Positions 22,505-30,916 of a stretch of 64,000 nt of DNA are shown here, in pieces (within the stretch, counting starts at the first letter, position 1; each line of letters opens with the position of its first letter). The notes below the pieces were generated by a model. That model was given only the letters and a program-made list of their open reading frames with translations. It searched no databases and was not told where the DNA came from. Source of the DNA: a virus. Taxonomy: Duplodnaviria > Caudoviricetes. The stretch is taken from positions 3,281-67,280 of the IMG/VR virus record IMGVR_UViG_3300037067_011362; one strand, given 5' to 3'. Position numbers and translations under genes: made by a program.

Positions 22505-23010
22505 TCACGGAAGGACGAGACACCCATCCTGCTCCACCTGGTCTAGTGGGCACCCCATGGAGCAAGCGTACACACGCCGCGCCATGTCCCATGCGGAGTC
22601 GTCCTGCGGGTGCTGCCCGGGTAGCAGGTCGATCGTGATGGGCAGGTCGCGAGATTTCGGGCTGCGTCCGGGTAGCCCCCGGGCTAGCCGATAGCAGTGA
22701 TACACGACCCTCATGACTCGTCCTCGTCCAGATAGTCCCAGCCGGCCGCGGCCACCAGGTCGTGGATGATCTCCTCGTCGTCCCGGTCGTCGTCCGACTC
22801 CGGGCTACGCCAGTAGTCAGGGCCCAGGTGAGCGACCACCAGCTCCACCATGCGGCCACACCTATGCCGAGCGTCCGCGGTCTGGTAGGGCGTACCGTGC
22901 CACGACCCGTCGTCCCCCCGATACTCGATGGGGGATGAGGCCTCGGACAGATCGCACCGGGTGATGAGGGAGTCGAAAGCGAATCGCGTAACGTATGCTT
23001 GGGTTTCCAT
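22505..23010 (-). CDS. Two small early hypothetical genes (22711..23010, 22505..22714)
   Basis: Coupled by overlaps downstream of the duplicated genes. Confidence 0.55.
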
Positions 23011-23627
23011 TACGTGGTCTCCAATAGGGTGAGTAAATCCGCCAGTGACCGCTCGTAGTCGGCGGCTCCGACGGAGTAGGCTTCGTAGTTGACCGCAACC
23101 CCGGCGGCGTAGGCGGCGGTGTCGGAAGTGTAGGCGGCGGCGAAGTAGGCGGCGGAGTAGGCGTCGGCGGCGGAGTAGGCGGCTGCGGCGGCGGAGTAGG
23201 CGGAGTAGGCGGAGTAGGCGTCGGCGTCGGAGGCGTCGGCGGCGTCGGCGGCTGCGTCGTCGTAGGCGTCGGAGTAGGCGTCGGCGGCGGAGTAGGCGGC
23301 GGAGTAGGCGGCGCGCAGCTCGTTAGCCGATGCATCACCCCGCGCAAATCTCTCCGCCGCATCGCACGCTGCGACACTACGTGGGTCAGGCGCGGCTACC
23401 TGTGACAGGGCGCGCCGAGCCGATGCCACGGCAGCTAGACGCAGCACCCGGTCGGGTAGTCCCGTGGCGTAGCAGAGGGCCCAGTAGCGATCCTGCGGGG
23501 GTATGGGGATGGCTGCTACCTGGCGCGGGGAGAGCCCCTCGACGGGGATGAGGTCGGCGAGACGATCGTCAGAGTAGCAGGCGTGAGCGCCTCGAGCTGA
23601 GGCTCTCGTGAGTCGATATGCTGGCAT
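23010..23627 (-). CDS. Imm5-like domain protein with Ala/Tyr-rich repeat, paralog B
   Basis: DPRSVAACDAAERFARGDA motif followed by AAYSAA repeats. Confidence 0.7.
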   Translation of the reverse strand: MPAYRLTRASARGAHACYSDDRLADLIPVEGLSPRQVAAIPIPPQDRYWALCYATGLPDRVLRLAAVASARRALSQVAAPDPRSVAACDAAERFARGDASANELRAAYSAAYSAADAYSDAYDDAAADAADASDADAYSAYSAYSAAAAAYSAADAYSAAYFAAAYTSDTAAYAAGVAVNYEAYSVGAADYERSLADLLTLLETT

Positions 23628-23629
23628 GA

Positions 23630-24289
23630 TTACGGTGTCTCCAGTAGGGTGAGTAAATCCGCCAGTGACCGCTCGTAGTCGGCGTAGGCGGCGTCGTAGG
23701 CTGCGTAGTTGACCGCGACCCCGGCGGAGTAGTGGGCGGCGGAGTAGGCGGCGGAGGTAGCGGAGTAGGCGGAGGCGGAGGCGGCGTCGGAAGTGTAGGC
23801 GGCTGCGTGGTATACGATGGCAGTGGCGTTTGCGGCGTCGGCGGCGTCGTAGGCGTCGTAGGCGTAATCGGCGCGGTGCGCCTCGGCGGCGGCGTCGGCA
23901 ACTGCGTAGGCGGCGGTGGCCGCGGTGGCCGCGGCGGAGGCAACTGCGTAGGCGACGGAGGAGGCCTCTTCCATCTCCGTAGCTGACGCTTCCCCGCGGA
24001 CGTAGCGCTCCGCGACGTCGCAGGCCGCTACGATCCGCGGGTCTGGAGACGACATCTGCCCTAGGGCACGGCGTGCCGATGCCACGGCAGCTAGGCGCAG
24101 TGCCCGGTCGGGTAGTCCCGTGGCGTAGCAGAGGGCCCAGTAGCGATCCTGCGGGGGTATGGGGAGCGCCGCCACATCACGCGGGGAGAGCCCCTCGACG
24201 GGGATGAGGTCGGCGAGACGATCGTCAGAGTAGCAGGCGTGAGCGCCTCGAGCTGAGGCTCTCGTGAGTCGATATGCTGATTCTGGCAT
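23630..24289 (-). CDS. Imm5-like domain protein with Ala/Tyr-rich repeat, paralog A
   Basis: DPRIVAACDVAERYVRGEA motif; near-identical N- and C-termini to paralog B. Confidence 0.7.
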   Translation of the reverse strand: MPESAYRLTRASARGAHACYSDDRLADLIPVEGLSPRDVAALPIPPQDRYWALCYATGLPDRALRLAAVASARRALGQMSSPDPRIVAACDVAERYVRGEASATEMEEASSVAYAVASAAATAATAAYAVADAAAEAHRADYAYDAYDAADAANATAIVYHAAAYTSDAASASAYSATSAAYSAAHYSAGVAVNYAAYDAAYADYERSLADLLTLLETP

Positions 24290-24381
24290 GACGGGGTCTT
24301 TCGTTGAGGGAGCAGCTCGGCTCCAGTGCCGCCGGCTGCCCCTCACCGTAGTCAGGGGCAGGTTGGCGGGACGGGAGACTA

Positions 24382-24642
24382 TCAGCGAGCGGGGCCGGCC
24401 CACTCAGAGTGGCCACCAGCGACGGTGGTGATCTCGATGTCGTGGTGGGCTAGATACGGGCGGTCAGCCGCTACCGACGCGGCGTGCTCACGGGCCTCGG
24501 CGAGCGACGTCGTCGCGAACTGCGGCAGGCACTCGGCCCCGCTCGTGCTCGGGTAGAGTACGATGTGAGTGTGGGCTACCGTCACCGTGTGGGTGCGGCA
24601 GTCGTAGGTGGCAGCGCGACGGATGTTACGAAGGTCAATCAT
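24382..24642 (-). CDS. Small hypothetical, first gene of an early operon
   Basis: GGGAG RBS and a sigma70-like promoter upstream. Confidence 0.65.
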   Translation of the reverse strand: MIDLRNIRRAATYDCRTHTVTVAHTHIVLYPSTSGAECLPQFATTSLAEAREHAASVAADRPYLAHHDIEITTVAGGHSEWAGPAR

Positions 24643-24672: not shown

Positions 24673-24701
24673 AGTATAGGAGCATCGAGCTGGTATGCCA
24701 G
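24673..24701 (-). promoter_or_regulatory. Sigma70-like promoter CTGGCA-N17-TATACT
   Basis: 17-nt spacer; GGCATACCAGC box overlaps the -35. Confidence 0.65.
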
Positions 24702-24710
24702 CGGTATTTG

Positions 24711-24975: not shown

Positions 24976-25004
24976 GGTCTAGCGCTGGTATGCCGGGGGG
25001 TCAA
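24976..25004 (-). promoter_or_regulatory. Sigma70-like promoter TTGACC-N17-TAGACC
   Basis: 17-nt spacer containing the same GGCATACCAGC box. Confidence 0.65.
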
Positions 25005-25384: not shown

Positions 25385-26806
25385 TCAACCACCAGCCACC
25401 TTCTTTCTAAACACTTCGGCAGATTTTGCGATTGCGGCTCTCTGGATCTGACCGTCCACGAAGTCCCACGGCATCGGCGTTCCAACAGCTAGACGCTTAA
25501 TGGTTAGCGCTGGCTCTCCAGTGATCATAATAGAGCCTTCCCTCCCGCTTCTGACCAGCGAGAGCGTTCGTTGGTTCTTCTTGTCGCTGCGTCCAGACAC
25601 GTGATCTATCTTTAGACCGTACGTCTTACTCAACCGTCTACGCAGTGACCACGACCATGCCCTGGCGTCTTCGCCTGCGGCCTCCCATTGCAGAGGGGTC
25701 CCCGGTTGAGGGAACAGCGGTTGCCATCGGATCTGAATCTGCCCTACGGTACGCGCCACCGTCAGCAGTGAGCGATCTATCGCTCGCAGCGCGTGGGCCA
25801 GTTCCTCGCACGAATCCGGGGTCTCACCAGGGAGACCCGCGATCATGTGCCACGCGATACGGGTACTCTTCACATCACGCTCGTGGAACCTAGAGAAAAG
25901 GCTCGCGGTTGCCTCGCATAGAAATTCGTTGGTGAGTCGCGGCTTCCCGATCGCAACACGAACACACTGAGTCGCCGCTTCTACTCCGAAGTTGTACTGC
26001 TTGTTGTAGTAGAGAGACCCAGCCGAATCGTACTCCTCGTCCATCGAAGCGGTACACCCCGTGTCTGTCTGGCCTGCCGCGGACATAGCTTTCCTGATCT
26101 CAACGATGTCCGGGTGGGCCTCCGCGTCGCAAGCTTGCAGGTGGACGCTAGGGATGCAGCGGATGGACTTTAGGATTTGCGCGGTGGAGTTGTGGCGCGG
26201 TTTACCCAACCACCCGAGGCCGCAAAACAGACACTTCTTGGGGCACCCGCGGGATATTTCCACGCGACACTGGTGGGCCGCAGCCGTCCCTCGCAAAGAA
26301 ACGGACACGTCGCGTGCGTAGCCGCGCACTAAGCGGTCCGTGCGTTCGTTGTGCTCGGTAGGAACGAACACGCCAGCCACGCGAGCCGCGAAGGACAGGA
26401 AAGCCGCTGTGTTGCCATGTTGCGCCCACAATCGCAGGAGATCAGGCAGCGAATCCTCGGCGTCCCCGAGCACGACCAGATCCACGAAGTCAGCAATCGG
26501 TAGCGGGTTGAATGTGCCTTGCCCTCCTGCCCACACGAAAGGATGAACGCCGAATTGTCTGTCCTTCGACATCGGTGGCACGCGATGACGACGTAGGGCC
26601 TTCGGGATCTGGAACATCGAAGCAAACTCGTGGACGCCCAGGAACAACGCGTCCGGATTCGTTTCGTCGCAAGAGAGGACGAGCCCGTGAGGCCTCCCGA
26701 TCTCAGCCACCAAATGAAGAGGGAAGGTAAGCCCCCCCTCCCCGTGGTGTCCTGTATTGGCTCGGAATGAATCCCAGGTACCGAGCGTGTCGGCGCGAGC
26801 TCTCAT
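25385..26806 (-). CDS. Radical SAM enzyme (COG1032/TIGR03960-like)
   Basis: EISRGCPKKCLFC CxxxCxxC motif, N-terminal WAGGQGTFNPLPIADFVDLVVLGDAE, FGVEAAT, MIAGLPGET, PQPGTPLQW, C-terminal PWD. Confidence 0.9.
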   Translation of the reverse strand: MRARADTLGTWDSFRANTGHHGEGGLTFPLHLVAEIGRPHGLVLSCDETNPDALFLGVHEFASMFQIPKALRRHRVPPMSKDRQFGVHPFVWAGGQGTFNPLPIADFVDLVVLGDAEDSLPDLLRLWAQHGNTAAFLSFAARVAGVFVPTEHNERTDRLVRGYARDVSVSLRGTAAAHQCRVEISRGCPKKCLFCGLGWLGKPRHNSTAQILKSIRCIPSVHLQACDAEAHPDIVEIRKAMSAAGQTDTGCTASMDEEYDSAGSLYYNKQYNFGVEAATQCVRVAIGKPRLTNEFLCEATASLFSRFHERDVKSTRIAWHMIAGLPGETPDSCEELAHALRAIDRSLLTVARTVGQIQIRWQPLFPQPGTPLQWEAAGEDARAWSWSLRRRLSKTYGLKIDHVSGRSDKKNQRTLSLVRSGREGSIMITGEPALTIKRLAVGTPMPWDFVDGQIQRAAIAKSAEVFRKKVAGG

Positions 26807-27486
26807 GCCGGCACCGCCACCAGGGCCTCCCGCTCCTTCAACCAGTACGGAGGAGCAATCGTGGAGTACCCCTGGGGAGAGTTACCCATGTCGAGCCCTG
26901 GTGTTTCCAAAGGAAGAGGACGCAGAGGAAGTCCACATTGCATTATAGGGAATCCTTCCCCCCATGTTTTTTTGGGTGACACCTCCCACTCTCGGACTCT
27001 GCCCTTCCCGCTACCCCGGTACTTCCCGAGGTAGTGGCAGCCGGACAGGATTGCTCGCACGCTCTCGATGTGTCCCAGCGCGTACCACGTCACCAGATCA
27101 TCTTTTGGTATCGCCAACTCCTTCTTCGCGAAATAGCTCTTGTCCTCCGCGACCGAGATATTGACTCTCGTGATCGATGCGTCTCCGAACCGTGCGTACT
27201 CGATCCATGGAGCACGACGCCCCATGATAAACTCGTCGTGTTCCTCGACCTCGAACTCTCCACTTGAGCAGAGGAAAAATCGACCACACGCGCTCTTTGC
27301 GATCGGGATATCAGGAAGTGGCCAATCCCGCGGATCTCCTTCGGGTTGAGCACTCACGCGCTGAGCGAGCAAGATCGCGAGAAGCGCGTCGAGTTGGGGG
27401 GCGCGCCTACCGGCGAACCCCTCACCCATCAGGCGGCACTTGACCACCATCGGTTCCGTCAGCTGTTCACTTGACCACGTAACCAT
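26803..27486 (-). CDS. csf3: Type IV CRISPR Cas5-group protein Csf3
   Basis: LDALLA N-terminus, WYALGHIESVRAIL, G-rich loop YLGKYRGSGKGRVREWEV, LRPLP, PPYW. Confidence 0.88.
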   Translation of the reverse strand: MVTWSSEQLTEPMVVKCRLMGEGFAGRRAPQLDALLAILLAQRVSAQPEGDPRDWPLPDIPIAKSACGRFFLCSSGEFEVEEHDEFIMGRRAPWIEYARFGDASITRVNISVAEDKSYFAKKELAIPKDDLVTWYALGHIESVRAILSGCHYLGKYRGSGKGRVREWEVSPKKTWGEGFPIMQCGLPLRPLPLETPGLDMGNSPQGYSTIAPPYWLKEREALVAVPA

Positions 27487-28463
27487 TGGGCAATGTCGTC
27501 CTTTCGCTCAGCAATGCGAGCCCGGAACAATGTTCCTACCATGCCAGCTAGGTCGTCCCCCAGGTCCTTCCCGATCTGTGGCTGAAGAGTGAAAGGAACC
27601 TGGTGTCCTTGAAGGAATGTCAACTTTCCGAAGCCCTCACGCCCCATTCCACCGACCCGAAAGTTGGAGATGAGACCAGCGAAGACGTAGTTGAAAGCAT
27701 CGAACTCCACGTCGTTGTATGTTCTCGCCTCGACCGCTCCCCAAAGCAGCGCCCCCGAGATGATGTGTTGAAACGACCTGGGCATCATGGTGGATTTGTG
27801 CTGCTTAGCCATCTTCGAATCCCCGGATTGGTGCGCTAGTTCCCGAAGCCGTTGCTTGTCGTATACAGCGATCTGTTCACCTTCCGAGAGCAGCTTGACC
27901 TTCTCTGGGACCAGCTCCGGATCCATGGTGACTCGTTGTGCTCGTGCAGTGAGTGGGCGCCACGAGCAAATGCCTTCGTTGTTCTGTTCCAACCACGCCT
28001 TAACCCACCGCGGCATAACGCCCAGGTTCTCGGTGCATATAAGGTTTAGTGCGTCCACGTTGATCTGTCCCGGCTTTGGACCGTTATCGATGCAACCACC
28101 GAACAGTGGAAGCACAGGGAAGATCGTGCAGAGCTCTCGCCATCGGTCGATATTGAGCACTGACGCGTCACCCTTCCCGGTGGTCGTCCCCCCGTTGAAC
28201 AAGAGTCGGAGAGCTCCTCGGGTCATGCCAGACGACTCCTTGAGAAGCCCAGCGGCGTCAAGGGTTAGAAGCATAGCTGCCTCGCGCAGCTTGTGTCGCA
28301 CCGAATTGCCGGTGACGGTTGGACGATGGACGATCTCCCCTCCTGGTCGACGCACCTTGGCGCGCATGATCATCGCCACATTCCCCACTGTTCCGCGGTG
28401 GTGAGCGATACCCTCTCCATCTGCCCGAACAATGAACTCATACCGTGTTTGCTGGAATCCCAT
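27459..28463 (-). CDS. csf2: Type IV CRISPR Cas7-group backbone protein Csf2
   Basis: TGNSVRHKLRE, LLFNGG, FPVLPLFGG, GQINVD, IISGALLWG, RVGGMGREGFGK. Confidence 0.93.
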   Translation of the reverse strand: MGFQQTRYEFIVRADGEGIAHHRGTVGNVAMIMRAKVRRPGGEIVHRPTVTGNSVRHKLREAAMLLTLDAAGLLKESSGMTRGALRLLFNGGTTTGKGDASVLNIDRWRELCTIFPVLPLFGGCIDNGPKPGQINVDALNLICTENLGVMPRWVKAWLEQNNEGICSWRPLTARAQRVTMDPELVPEKVKLLSEGEQIAVYDKQRLRELAHQSGDSKMAKQHKSTMMPRSFQHIISGALLWGAVEARTYNDVEFDAFNYVFAGLISNFRVGGMGREGFGKLTFLQGHQVPFTLQPQIGKDLGDDLAGMVGTLFRARIAERKDDIAQWLRGQVNS

Positions 28464-28471
28464 GATTGTTC

Positions 28472-28909
28472 CTACTCCTGAAAAAGCCCGTTGGCTCGGG
28501 CGGCGTCTTCGATCTCGTCGGCGGTGAACTTGAGCGATTGCTCGGCTTCTTTCTCCTCCTTGCGAGAATCCACAGTGAGGCGCGATACCCCAATCAGAAA
28601 TGCAGCGTTGCGCTCGATGAACGTGAGCACGTCGTCTTCCTTGCCATTCTCGTCGACCCAGTTCGATAGATCAACCAAAGCCTGGCAAGCGGATTTGTCC
28701 AGCCCCTTGATTTGGAGATCGTTCTGTAGGCTTTGCCCCATCTCTGGGATCGTCTGCTCGCTCGTTGATACCACGAGCATATCCTGGATCCTGTCCCAGT
28801 ACCCTGGAGTGACTCTTCCGCTTCGACTCGCGATGTACCCGCGCCGGTACCCGAGTATCATCTCCACCACTAACGTCTCCACTCGCTTCCGTTGTTCGTT
28901 TGTTAGCAC
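28472..28909 (-). CDS. cas11: Cas11-like small subunit
   Basis: 145 aa all-helical protein (YWDRIQD...LQI) between csf1 and csf2, as in type IV-B. Confidence 0.72.
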   Translation of the reverse strand: MLTNEQRKRVETLVVEMILGYRRGYIASRSGRVTPGYWDRIQDMLVVSTSEQTIPEMGQSLQNDLQIKGLDKSACQALVDLSNWVDENGKEDDVLTFIERNAAFLIGVSRLTVDSRKEEKEAEQSLKFTADEIEDAARANGLFQE

Positions 28910-29822
28910 GTCGTTTCTCTTTCTCGGCAGAGAGTTTCTCCGCCTTCGTTAGTTTCTCACGCTCTTGCCTAGCTTCGACATCCCTCTCATCTCTTTGGGC
29001 AAGCCAAAGCGCTAGCTTGAACCACCCCCCGCCGCGCTTCCCGCGGTGTGCCGTTTCGAAGCACTCAATGTCGTCACGGCACCTGATCCACGTGTTTGAT
29101 CGATAGTCTCCAGCGTCGATCTCTTCTTTGGTCCCACCAGCCGTGAGTAGGGATGCCATGTCGCGAACCAGATCCAGGGATTTCGGAATGGCCACTAGGT
29201 CATCTTCGAAAATGACCACGCCACCGCGACCAGGGCCATTCAATGGAGCCCACGGGGTTACGTGCTTCTGTCCACTGTCGGCAATCGAGGCGAACCACGT
29301 GCCTTGGTGGTTGCGATCCAAGAAAGCCAGTATTAGTGGCTTCTCTCCTTTGCTGGCATTGGCGTATCCGACAACCACTGTTCCGTCCGGAAGTGCAGGG
29401 GAGTTCCATCCCTGCTCCAGGATGTGAGAGTAGTTGCGCCAGTTGCCACCAGCCGAGGCTTGGCCGGATCCTTCGCACTTGGGACACGGGTCCCCGACCT
29501 GGCACGTGCGAGTCTTTCCCTTCTTCTGGACCTCTGTAACGAAACCAGTCCCATCGCACCCCTTGCAGGCCCCAGCGGGGCGGCCAGGGACGGGCCAGAG
29601 ACGGCGAGCTAGCATCACGCAGGCCGCGCACACATGGGACGCGTACGGGGCTCGCACGCGGTTCTGGTCGGTATAGTTGGATGACATCCATTCGCGGACC
29701 GAAAGACCTACGGTAACAGGTCCCGCGCATTGGTAACAGACTCCGGAAGCTTCCAGGCAACCCTCAACGGGAGGGCTACCCAACAGAGTCCAAAGAAGGT
29801 TTGGTGCTGAATCGGTTGTCAT
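28671..29822 (-). CDS. csf1: Type IV large subunit Csf1 (Cas8-like) with inserted DnaJ-type zinc finger
   Basis: CYQC...CAAC zinc site, GNWRNYSH, IADSGQKHVTPWAPLN, KEEIDAGDY, LALWLAQR. ATG 29822 overlaps the upstream stop (ATGA). Confidence 0.85.
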   Translation of the reverse strand: MTTDSAPNLLWTLLGSPPVEGCLEASGVCYQCAGPVTVGLSVREWMSSNYTDQNRVRAPYASHVCAACVMLARRLWPVPGRPAGACKGCDGTGFVTEVQKKGKTRTCQVGDPCPKCEGSGQASAGGNWRNYSHILEQGWNSPALPDGTVVVGYANASKGEKPLILAFLDRNHQGTWFASIADSGQKHVTPWAPLNGPGRGGVVIFEDDLVAIPKSLDLVRDMASLLTAGGTKEEIDAGDYRSNTWIRCRDDIECFETAHRGKRGGGWFKLALWLAQRDERDVEARQEREKLTKAEKLSAEKEKRRANKRTTEASGDVSGGDDTRVPARVHRESKRKSHSRVLGQDPGYARGINERADDPRDGAKPTERSPNQGAGQIRLPGFG

Positions 29823-30916
29823 TTTTCCTCCGTCACACGGATCCTGCCGAAACCGAACGCCACCTTGCCGCCGTATCCTAGGCCTAGCGCGCAGCACTGC
29901 AGGAGGAAACGACCCACCGCGTTGGTCTCGATGATGGCGTGCCCAGCCCAGCCAGCAGTGCGCCCGAACTCGCGATTGCGTCCCGCTAGAGCCACGTATC
30001 TTTCGCTGGTCGAGCCTTCGATAAGCTCCATGCGTACGGTGTTTGGTGCAATGTTGAGGCCCAGGCGGCGCGGCATGAACCCCTCGAGTGTGCCTCGCAG
30101 GTGGCGTGAGTTGGGGGTTATGTGCACCATTGAGCTCCCGTACGCGCGAATGTGCACCGGCGTGATTGCGTCAATCCTCACCTTGTACGTGCCCGGTTTG
30201 TAGCACGGAGCCTTGACCCTGACGAGTGATCCGAACCGGATCGTCACCTCCCGCTCGCCGAGCATGATCTCATGCTCACGACCAGCAAGAGCACGCACAG
30301 CATCATCCTCTGCCAAGTATGCCGCCCACCCACAACCGCTAGGCCACGGGAGCAGAGCAAAGCGCGGCATGTGAGGCATGTGCGCCCCGGTCAGCGACGT
30401 CATCACTCCGTGCAGAGCGGACAGCTGCCAGTGTTGGAAGGTCTGGTGATTCGAAAGCTCGATCGTTGCGAATCCGCCGGGTAGGTAGTCGAGACCCGGG
30501 CATGGTAGAAGCCACGGCTCGATCTCGGGTACGGGTTCGCTCTTTTTGCGCTTCGACGCTTCCTTGGCGGCCAGTCGACGAGCGGCGACGCGCGCCCGGT
30601 GCTCGCCCTTGTGCGTAGCGTACCAGGCCGCAGAGCGCGCCCTGTTCTTCTCGACCTCTGAAGGGTTCGCACGCTCAAGCTGGTAGCGGCGCTTGTACCG
30701 GCAAGGATCCGAGCAGTAGGAGTGTCCCCGGTATTTGGGGACAAAGGGGGTGCCGCAGATTTCGCAAGGCTCCGTGTAGGTTTTGCTTGTTGGGTTCGTG
30801 CGGCAGTAGGCTGTTCGGTGCTCCGGGCAGCAGTACATCTGGCGCGCGTTCTTCGGCTCGAATCCGATGCCGCACTCGGGACACATGCGAAGATCAAGGT
30901 TTAGTGGAGCGTTCAT
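29819..30916 (-). CDS. cas6: Cas6-like RAMP endoribonuclease with N-terminal tandem zinc fingers
   Basis: C-terminal Gly-rich loop GLGYGGKVAFGFGRI, ITPVHIR, SALHG. N-terminal CPEC..CCPEH and CEIC..CSDPC fingers. Confidence 0.8.
   Translation of the reverse strand: MNAPLNLDLRMCPECGIGFEPKNARQMYCCPEHRTAYCRTNPTSKTYTEPCEICGTPFVPKYRGHSYCSDPCRYKRRYQLERANPSEVEKNRARSAAWYATHKGEHRARVAARRLAAKEASKRKKSEPVPEIEPWLLPCPGLDYLPGGFATIELSNHQTFQHWQLSALHGVMTSLTGAHMPHMPRFALLPWPSGCGWAAYLAEDDAVRALAGREHEIMLGEREVTIRFGSLVRVKAPCYKPGTYKVRIDAITPVHIRAYGSSMVHITPNSRHLRGTLEGFMPRRLGLNIAPNTVRMELIEGSTSERYVALAGRNREFGRTAGWAGHAIIETNAVGRFLLQCCALGLGYGGKVAFGFGRIRVTEEK

Follow-up and report, generated by a model that had tools for sequence, protein, structure and literature searches.

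The stretch of DNA analysed here, referred to as the window, comprises 64,000 nucleotides (bases 3281–67280) of the 67,280-bp linear virus record IMGVR_UViG_3300037067_011362, for which CheckV estimates a completeness of 81%. The phage is of the tailed type, with genes for a tape measure protein, a large terminase, a head protease and a helicase. Its minus strand carries an operon with the gene order zinc finger (ZnF)-cas6, csf1, cas11, csf2, csf3 and radical SAM (Table 1). The product of the first gene, P0001, is very probably a Cas6-family subunit of a type IV-B-like CRISPR-Cas cassette and carries a conserved zinc-ribbon fusion. The original prediction, made from the sequence without database searches, had placed a Cas6 fused to tandem zinc fingers and a basic helix at this site; its coordinates coincide exactly with one open reading frame (ORF), located on the minus strand, and all of its listed elements (two fingers, an Arg/Lys-rich helix, a RAMP domain and a Gly-rich loop at the end) are present. 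The ATG start codon of the gene has AAGG just upstream, and its TGA stop codon overlaps the ATG of csf1 within the sequence ATGA, indicating translational coupling. The corresponding stretch was found in DNA assemblies of a groundwater metagenome, which may be the source sample, and of a landfill metagenome; no RNA run was listed. At position 30789 (codon 43, between the fingers) the window has a G and both sequencing runs have an A, which is either a strain difference or an error in the record consensus.

Table 1. Position of the ZnF-Cas6 gene, its parts and the other cassette genes in the window.
Feature	Coordinates	Strand	Extent or motif	Remarks
ZnF-Cas6 fusion ORF (P0001)	29819-30916	minus	365 aa + stop	homologues share the MNA start
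Zinc finger 1	30818-30883	minus	residues 12-33; C12-x2-C15-x13-C29(C30)-x3-H33	in about one quarter of the family
Zinc finger 2	30701-30766	minus	residues 51-72; C51-x2-C54-x13-C68-x3-C72	near-universal in the family; NinG-type motif
Basic helical hairpin	30539-30709	minus	residues 70-126	predicted helices (AF2) 70-83 and 85-126
Cas6 domain	29822-30490	minus	residues 143-365	two RRM/ferredoxin folds
Candidate active-site stretch	30380-30412	minus	His169 (30410-30412) to His179 (30380-30382)	
Gly-rich loop	29843-29878	minus	residues 347-358; GYGGKVAFGFGR	aligns with the G-loop of T. thermophilus Cas6B
csf1 (Cas8-like large subunit)	28671-29822	minus		TIGR03114 E 2.6e-5; likely ATG at 29822; conserved in 20+ loci
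cas11-like small subunit	28472-28909	minus	145 aa	L009 counterpart 40% identity, E 4e-22
csf2 (Cas7)	27459-28463	minus		TIGR03115 E 3e-6; best PDB match IV-B Csf2 of 7JHY, E 1.7e-5
csf3 (Cas5)	26803-27486	minus		TIGR03116 E 0.0019; conserved in related loci
B12-binding-type radical SAM enzyme	25385-26806	minus		PF19864 E 4e-17; PF04055 E 3e-9

A structural model of P0001 was obtained with AlphaFold2 (AF2) from an alignment of 20 sequences, with a predicted local distance difference test (pLDDT) score of 83. From residue 143 onwards, the model displays a double beta-alpha-beta-beta-alpha-beta domain. We performed a structure search with VIA, independently of Foldseek, on 48,161 PDB representatives. 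The top fold match was Cas6 of S. thermophilus (6fjw; Z 16.2, root-mean-square deviation 3.7, 208 aligned residues), followed by T. thermophilus Cas6A (4c8y; Z 15.5) and the type IV Cas6 of Mahella (6njy; Z 15.0). Further Cas6, Cas6b, Cas6e and type IV-A Cas6 chains occurred down to a Z of 8, and Cmr3 and Cas5-type chains remained below 8 in the same search. Foldseek matched Cas6 chains with E values of 6e-8 to 2e-4, including those of the type IV-A complexes 7xfz and 8rc3. Among the 102 homologues that served as conservation set (27–84% identity), 67 match PF10040 (CRISPR_Cas6) and 12 match PF01881 (Cas_Cas6_C) at E≤0.01.

With the Cas6 proteins of type I, III and IV systems (6FJW, 4C8Y, 6NJY), P0001 has in common the double RNA recognition motif (RRM) fold of approximately 205 residues, the C-terminal Gly-rich loop and, by predicted secondary structure, conserved histidines in the alpha1 region. 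However, its identity to these proteins is just 12–16%, it has an additional N-terminal zinc-ribbon/basic-helix extension of approximately 135 residues, and there is no repeat array for it to cut. The csf operons of type IV-A likewise encode a Cas6 subunit, Csf5/Cas6 (7XFZ, 8RC3/8RFJ, 6H9H; Z 10.1 for 8rfj_M and 7.9 for 6h9h). In type IV-A, Cas6 carries out the maturation of CRISPR RNA (crRNA) and is required for complex formation (PMC7038947). In contrast to the cassette in the window, type IV-A systems possess arrays and DinG, and their Cas6 lacks a zinc-finger extension. Cas6 as one domain of a larger protein also occurs in Cas6-RT-Cas1 (6DD5/7KFT), whose fusion partner is a different one and which belongs to an adaptation and not to an effector system.

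The N-terminal module of P0001 (residues 1–135) consists of two paralogous C4/C3H zinc fingers and a subsequent helical hairpin. The two fingers are identical at 9 of 23 positions (C, C, G, F, P, K, Y, C, R), indicating that the tandem originates from an internal duplication of one finger type. Residues 70–130 comprise 18 Lys/Arg among 61 residues, with a net charge of +11 and an isoelectric point of 10.7. The original prediction had likened the fingers to treble clefs; in the model of the separately folded N-terminus (pLDDT 84), the CxxC knuckles are accompanied by short strands, and a helix that contains C72 begins at residue 70. The best profile matches of this region were accessory finger families of phage HNH endonucleases, phrog_1271 (E 8e-9) and phrog_15471 (E 3e-6). 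The NinG Pfam family PF05766 matched over its profile positions 6–72 with an E value of 2e-4 at 21.6 bits, which is under the cut-off of 25.4; a match to this family occurs in 7 of the 102 relatives. Direct alignment to lambda NinG by hhalign covered the finger alone (22 columns, E 0.009). In BFVD, the N-terminal model retrieved, at E values of approximately 1e-4, predicted structures of HNH endonucleases and of small zinc proteins from phages; one relative matches DUF2116, a 'probable treble clef'. The fold search of the N-terminus in the PDB was dominated by the long helix and returned generic long helices only (Z of about 5), the PDB sequence search gave no match, a profile search yielded zinc-finger matches at noise level only, and all scores in an Atlas feature search were below 0.9. 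The likeness to NinG/Rap and the phage HNH enzymes consists in a C-x2-C ... (F/Y)-C-S-x2-C finger and a basic helix behind it. Unlike in these enzymes, neither an HNH nor a Rap nuclease domain follows the fingers of P0001, and an HNH motif was not found in the protein.

An exhaustive HMMER search recovered 437 clusters (50% identity) at E≤1e-3, 58 of them below 1e-30. All family members whose names were looked up are annotated as 'hypothetical protein'. In the conservation set, C51, C54 and C72 are conserved in at least 90% of the sequences, C51 and C54 being nearly invariant; C68 reaches at least 90% in an N-terminal alignment of 14 sequences. Fingers were counted in 110 representatives with a recognisable core, 87 of which have at least 45 residues ahead of it. 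One finger is present in 56 of these and two in 22, so that approximately 90% (78/87) keep at least one; the remaining nine mostly have degenerate or truncated fingers. In the unit common to the family, finger 2 is followed by a short helix and a conserved Pro, then by a second helix with an R-x-R-x3-W motif and by the PWLLGAP linker. In the clade of the window, finger 1 is added and the basic helix is longer. Judged from these sequences, the best explanation is that the ancestor of this Cas6 clade already had the finger module and that finger 1 arose by a later duplication. Contigs with homologues span Myxococcota, Acidobacteria, and Alpha- and Betaproteobacteria. In the plasmid collection, tblastn with P0001 gave no match; in the phage collection it matched the finger region only and gave no match to the Cas6 part, and megablast of the locus against the phages gave no match either.

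Several relatives are longer than P0001. Five of these (P0020, P0045, P0050, P0062 and P0106) have a length of about 440–475 aa, and P0051, P0064, P0105, P0118, P0122, P0136, P0144 and P0145 comprise 600–780 aa. The longer proteins either extend approximately 100 residues beyond the G-loop or have several hundred residues, with as many as three fingers, ahead of the Cas6 core. These extensions indicate that this Cas6 family serves as a platform for further fusions.

The fusion could also be explained as an artefact, that is, a misassembly, a missed stop codon, or a Cas5 or other RAMP protein mistaken for Cas6. The contigs from the landfill metagenome leave a hole of 60 nt at 30425–30484, and P0001 taken alone has no hit among the Cas6 profiles. 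However, a single contig from the groundwater run, with the reservation on its origin given above, spans the whole gene, and because the same architecture recurs across dozens of independent assemblies an assembly error is excluded. With regard to the fold, Cas6 chains score Z 10–16 compared to less than 8 for Cas5 and Cmr3, and the operon encodes a separate Csf3/Cas5. An artefact or misassigned fold is thus refuted for practical purposes. The fold ranks and the Pfam matches of the relatives bear out the original prediction that the C-terminal domain is a Cas6, and not a Cas5 or a non-Cas fold. Its further statement that fingers of this kind accompany phage HNH enzymes and are foreign to standard Cas6 agrees with the matches to phrog_1271, the NinG Pfam family and BFVD. 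The fusion also recurs in other csf loci.

We compared the cassette to 43 related loci drawn from viral, genome and metagenome collections. Loci with enough sequence display one of two orders, csf1-cas11-csf2-csf3-cas6-X or cas6-csf1-cas11-csf2-csf3-X; this fixed context recurs in more than 20 metagenomic and viral loci that are independent of each other. In most loci, X is a CysH-like gene (PAPS-reductase fold); a radical SAM gene takes this place in the loci designated L010 and L025 and in the window. The cas11-like gene is kept between csf1 and csf2 in L009, L008, L014, L026 and L028. A PAPS-reductase gene (PF01507) was not found in the record, nor was Cas1, the record being 81% complete by estimate; the cassette genes are devoid of a helicase domain, and Pfam searches on nine neighbouring ORFs revealed no families. 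The cassette is a type IV-B architecture plus Cas6. It resembles the type IV-B system of Mycobacterium sp. JS623, whose Csf complex is represented by 7JHY, in the core gene set and its order and in the lack of an array, adaptation genes and a helicase; most relatives of the cassette in addition carry the CysH-like gene. In contrast to IV-B, a ZnF-Cas6 is always present in this clade, the clade occurs on phage-like contigs and contigs of metagenome-assembled genomes and not in the plasmid collection, and the window has a radical SAM enzyme in the position of CysH.

Type IV-B has been described as devoid of dinG, csf5/Cas6 and an array, with Cas6 as 'rare exceptions: only 12 instances' (PMC7038947), and as being without 'a crRNA processing enzyme' (PMC8175902). 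The 2025 update of the classification (PMC12669027) mentions neither such a Cas6 nor a radical SAM partner, and full-text literature searches revealed no relevant zinc-ribbon or zinc-finger fusion of Cas6. We concluded that the fusion family is large and unnamed and that it marks a phage-associated branch of type IV-B.

Three further observations were made on the cassette genes. The exchange of CysH for a radical SAM enzyme occurred in at least two distant branches (L010:8505-10001, L025 and the window), with 24% identity between two of the radical SAM proteins. Behind its N-terminal Csf1 zinc site, the csf1 product contains an inserted zinc module of the DnaJ type, CxxCxGxG (29461–29567; PF00684, E 1.3e-4, residues 109–147). 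The cas11-like gene overlaps approximately 240 nt of the csf1 ORF (28671–28909) in another frame, and the same overlap is present in L009; the tail of csf1 over this region is of low complexity and is unconserved in relatives. Possible explanations are that the two genes truly overlap, that translation starts internally, or that a frameshift takes place here.

The order of the genes also bears on a role of the protein as DNA-binding regulator, in which fingers and basic helix would bind operator DNA and the protein would autoregulate its operon, as had been proposed by the original prediction. The fingers are related to those of DNA enzymes (NinG/Rap and the HNH endonucleases of phages) and the N-terminus is strongly basic, which would be in line with such a function. 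However, cas6 occupies the first or the fifth position of the cassette depending on the locus, and the finger module is kept at either position. In the window, the gene forms part of a long operon of coupled genes, and its vicinity lacks a promoter-like site. A regulator would, furthermore, have no need of an intact Cas6 core with an invariant His and a G-loop. We therefore regard a regulatory function, suggested by analogy to the enzymes above, as highly unlikely.

The Cas6 core was examined for residues of a potential active site. H169, G349 and G357 are invariant in the 102 sequences, and H179 is conserved in at least 90% of them. H169 is situated within a helix predicted by AF2 (residues 162–176, alpha1), and H179 just beyond it, at the place of the alpha1-beta2 loop. 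Helix alpha1 and the alpha1-beta2 loop form the active site of T. thermophilus Cas6A and Cas6B, with Arg22/His37 and His23/His42, respectively, and histidines take part in catalysis in nearly all Cas6 proteins (PMC3902920). The conserved histidines and the invariant G-loop apparently point to a working RNA site. The original prediction had also considered a catalytically repurposed RAMP protein. This idea is weakened because His169 is invariant, His179 is near-invariant and the G-loop is intact; it is less likely, and the least favoured of the functional ideas put forward there.

Based on these results we consider it moderately likely that the Cas6-family subunit selects and probably cuts RNA, and that it caps a phage IV-B-like Csf complex. 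The Cas6 domain would recognise a defined stem-loop in a non-CRISPR RNA of phage or host origin, which would probably be cut by the His169/His179 pocket. Cas6 would then stay on the product and cap the Csf2/Cas11 filament, a role that Cas6 also has in type IV-A, and would in this way nucleate it. In this way, ZnF-Cas6 would supply a step of RNA selection that is absent from plasmid-borne IV-B systems. Zinc ribbon and basic helix may additionally contact RNA or target DNA with lower specificity, and the CysH-like or radical SAM accessory enzyme may be recruited to a nucleic acid by the bound complex.

A number of observations weigh against this mechanism. No CRISPR array or mini-array was detected in the 67-kb record, of an estimated completeness of 81%, or in the 43 related loci by TRF, a repeat finder and a custom script (26-nt windows, 80% identity, 45–110 nt spacing), the repeats recovered being coding repeats only, with periods divisible by three. 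Similarly, no Rfam family was found in the record at gathering thresholds. In published work (PMC7937560; PMC8175902), the IV-B complex assembled on heterogeneous non-CRISPR RNA and without Cas6, which implies that a specific RNA need not exist. P0001 itself matches none of the Cas6 sequence profiles PF10040, PF01881 and TIGR01877. In addition, when the family profile was compared to T. thermophilus Cas6B with hhalign, the alignment covered the C-terminal RRM only, and for this reason the register of the histidines was derived from secondary structure and not from superposition. The position of Tyr256 in the G-loop of Cas6B is occupied by Phe in the P0001 family. Finally, the kinship of the fingers to those of DNA enzymes would fit binding of DNA as well as binding of RNA. 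By mere analogy, the fingers might tether RNA processing to DNA, as suggested in the original prediction.

Some of these observations would also be compatible with a Cas6 domain that binds the end or a hairpin of an RNA as a non-catalytic cap, similar to some inactive Cas6 homologues, with the histidines employed for binding. His37 of T. thermophilus Cas6A contributes approximately 70–90-fold to binding (PMC3902920), no locus contains a repeat to cut, and the G-loop Tyr of Cas6B is replaced as stated above. However, one His is invariant and a second near-invariant over 102 sequences at approximately 30% identity, a pattern more typical of catalysis, and the active sites of Cas6 proteins are plastic and often lack a Tyr (PMC3902920). 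We therefore consider a purely binding cap rather unlikely.

The lack of an own array in all loci examined (0/44) also relates to a role in counter-defence by guide scavenging. In this case, the phage Cas6 would bind host CRISPR repeats, capture or process host pre-crRNA, and either load the host guides onto the Csf complex of the phage or sponge them so that host effectors are deprived of them. The system is phage-borne, scavenging or sponging of crRNAs has been proposed for IV-B (PMC8175902), and a Cas6 with a conserved pocket resembling an active site would confer specificity for a repeat. However, the family is distributed across very different bacteria, while the specificity of Cas6 usually follows one repeat type, and the Mycobacterium IV-B complex did not incorporate co-expressed I-E crRNAs (PMC8175902). 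Scavenging of host guides thus appears unlikely.

One candidate for a hairpin pair with the consensus GCTGGTATGCC(A/G)G(C/G)GG was rejected: it occurs in two copies only, the pattern was picked post hoc, and 1 of 100 shuffles gave an equal result. The copies of this partly palindromic 16-nt motif are located at 24689–24704 and 24984–24999, 295 nt apart and just downstream of the radical SAM gene, and the first copy overlaps a promoter-like site of the next leftward gene. Further downstream, the minus strand at 23010–24403 contains two adjacent ORFs of 205 and 257 aa with imperfect repeats rich in Ala, Tyr, Ser and Asp (period 9–30 nt) and no Pfam family. In L003 and L012, coding repeats rich in Gly, Tyr and Asp are likewise found at a distance of a few kb from the cassette.

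Returning to RNA selection and capping by ZnF-Cas6, a more far-reaching version of this mechanism would regard the protein as the missing guide-selection enzyme of type IV-B. The guide would be carved from a non-CRISPR transcript of phage or host, and the CysH-like or radical SAM enzyme would be sent to complementary RNA or DNA, so that the Csf complex would direct an RNA-guided chemical modification, and not a cleavage, used by phages against hosts or rival elements. We consider this version speculative and improbable.

Of all CRISPR-Cas subtypes, type IV-B is understood least: it lacks an array and a nuclease, and no RNA is known for it. What is new here is a large clade in which, according to sequence comparison, a dedicated Cas6 is always present that is apparently active and bears an additional module for nucleic acid binding. 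Through this one protein, the question of which RNA is used by IV-B becomes directly testable, and the fusion represents an experimental entry point. The radical SAM enzyme joins the set of enzymes that are able to replace CysH, and this replacement strengthens the idea that IV-B complexes deliver a chemical modification.

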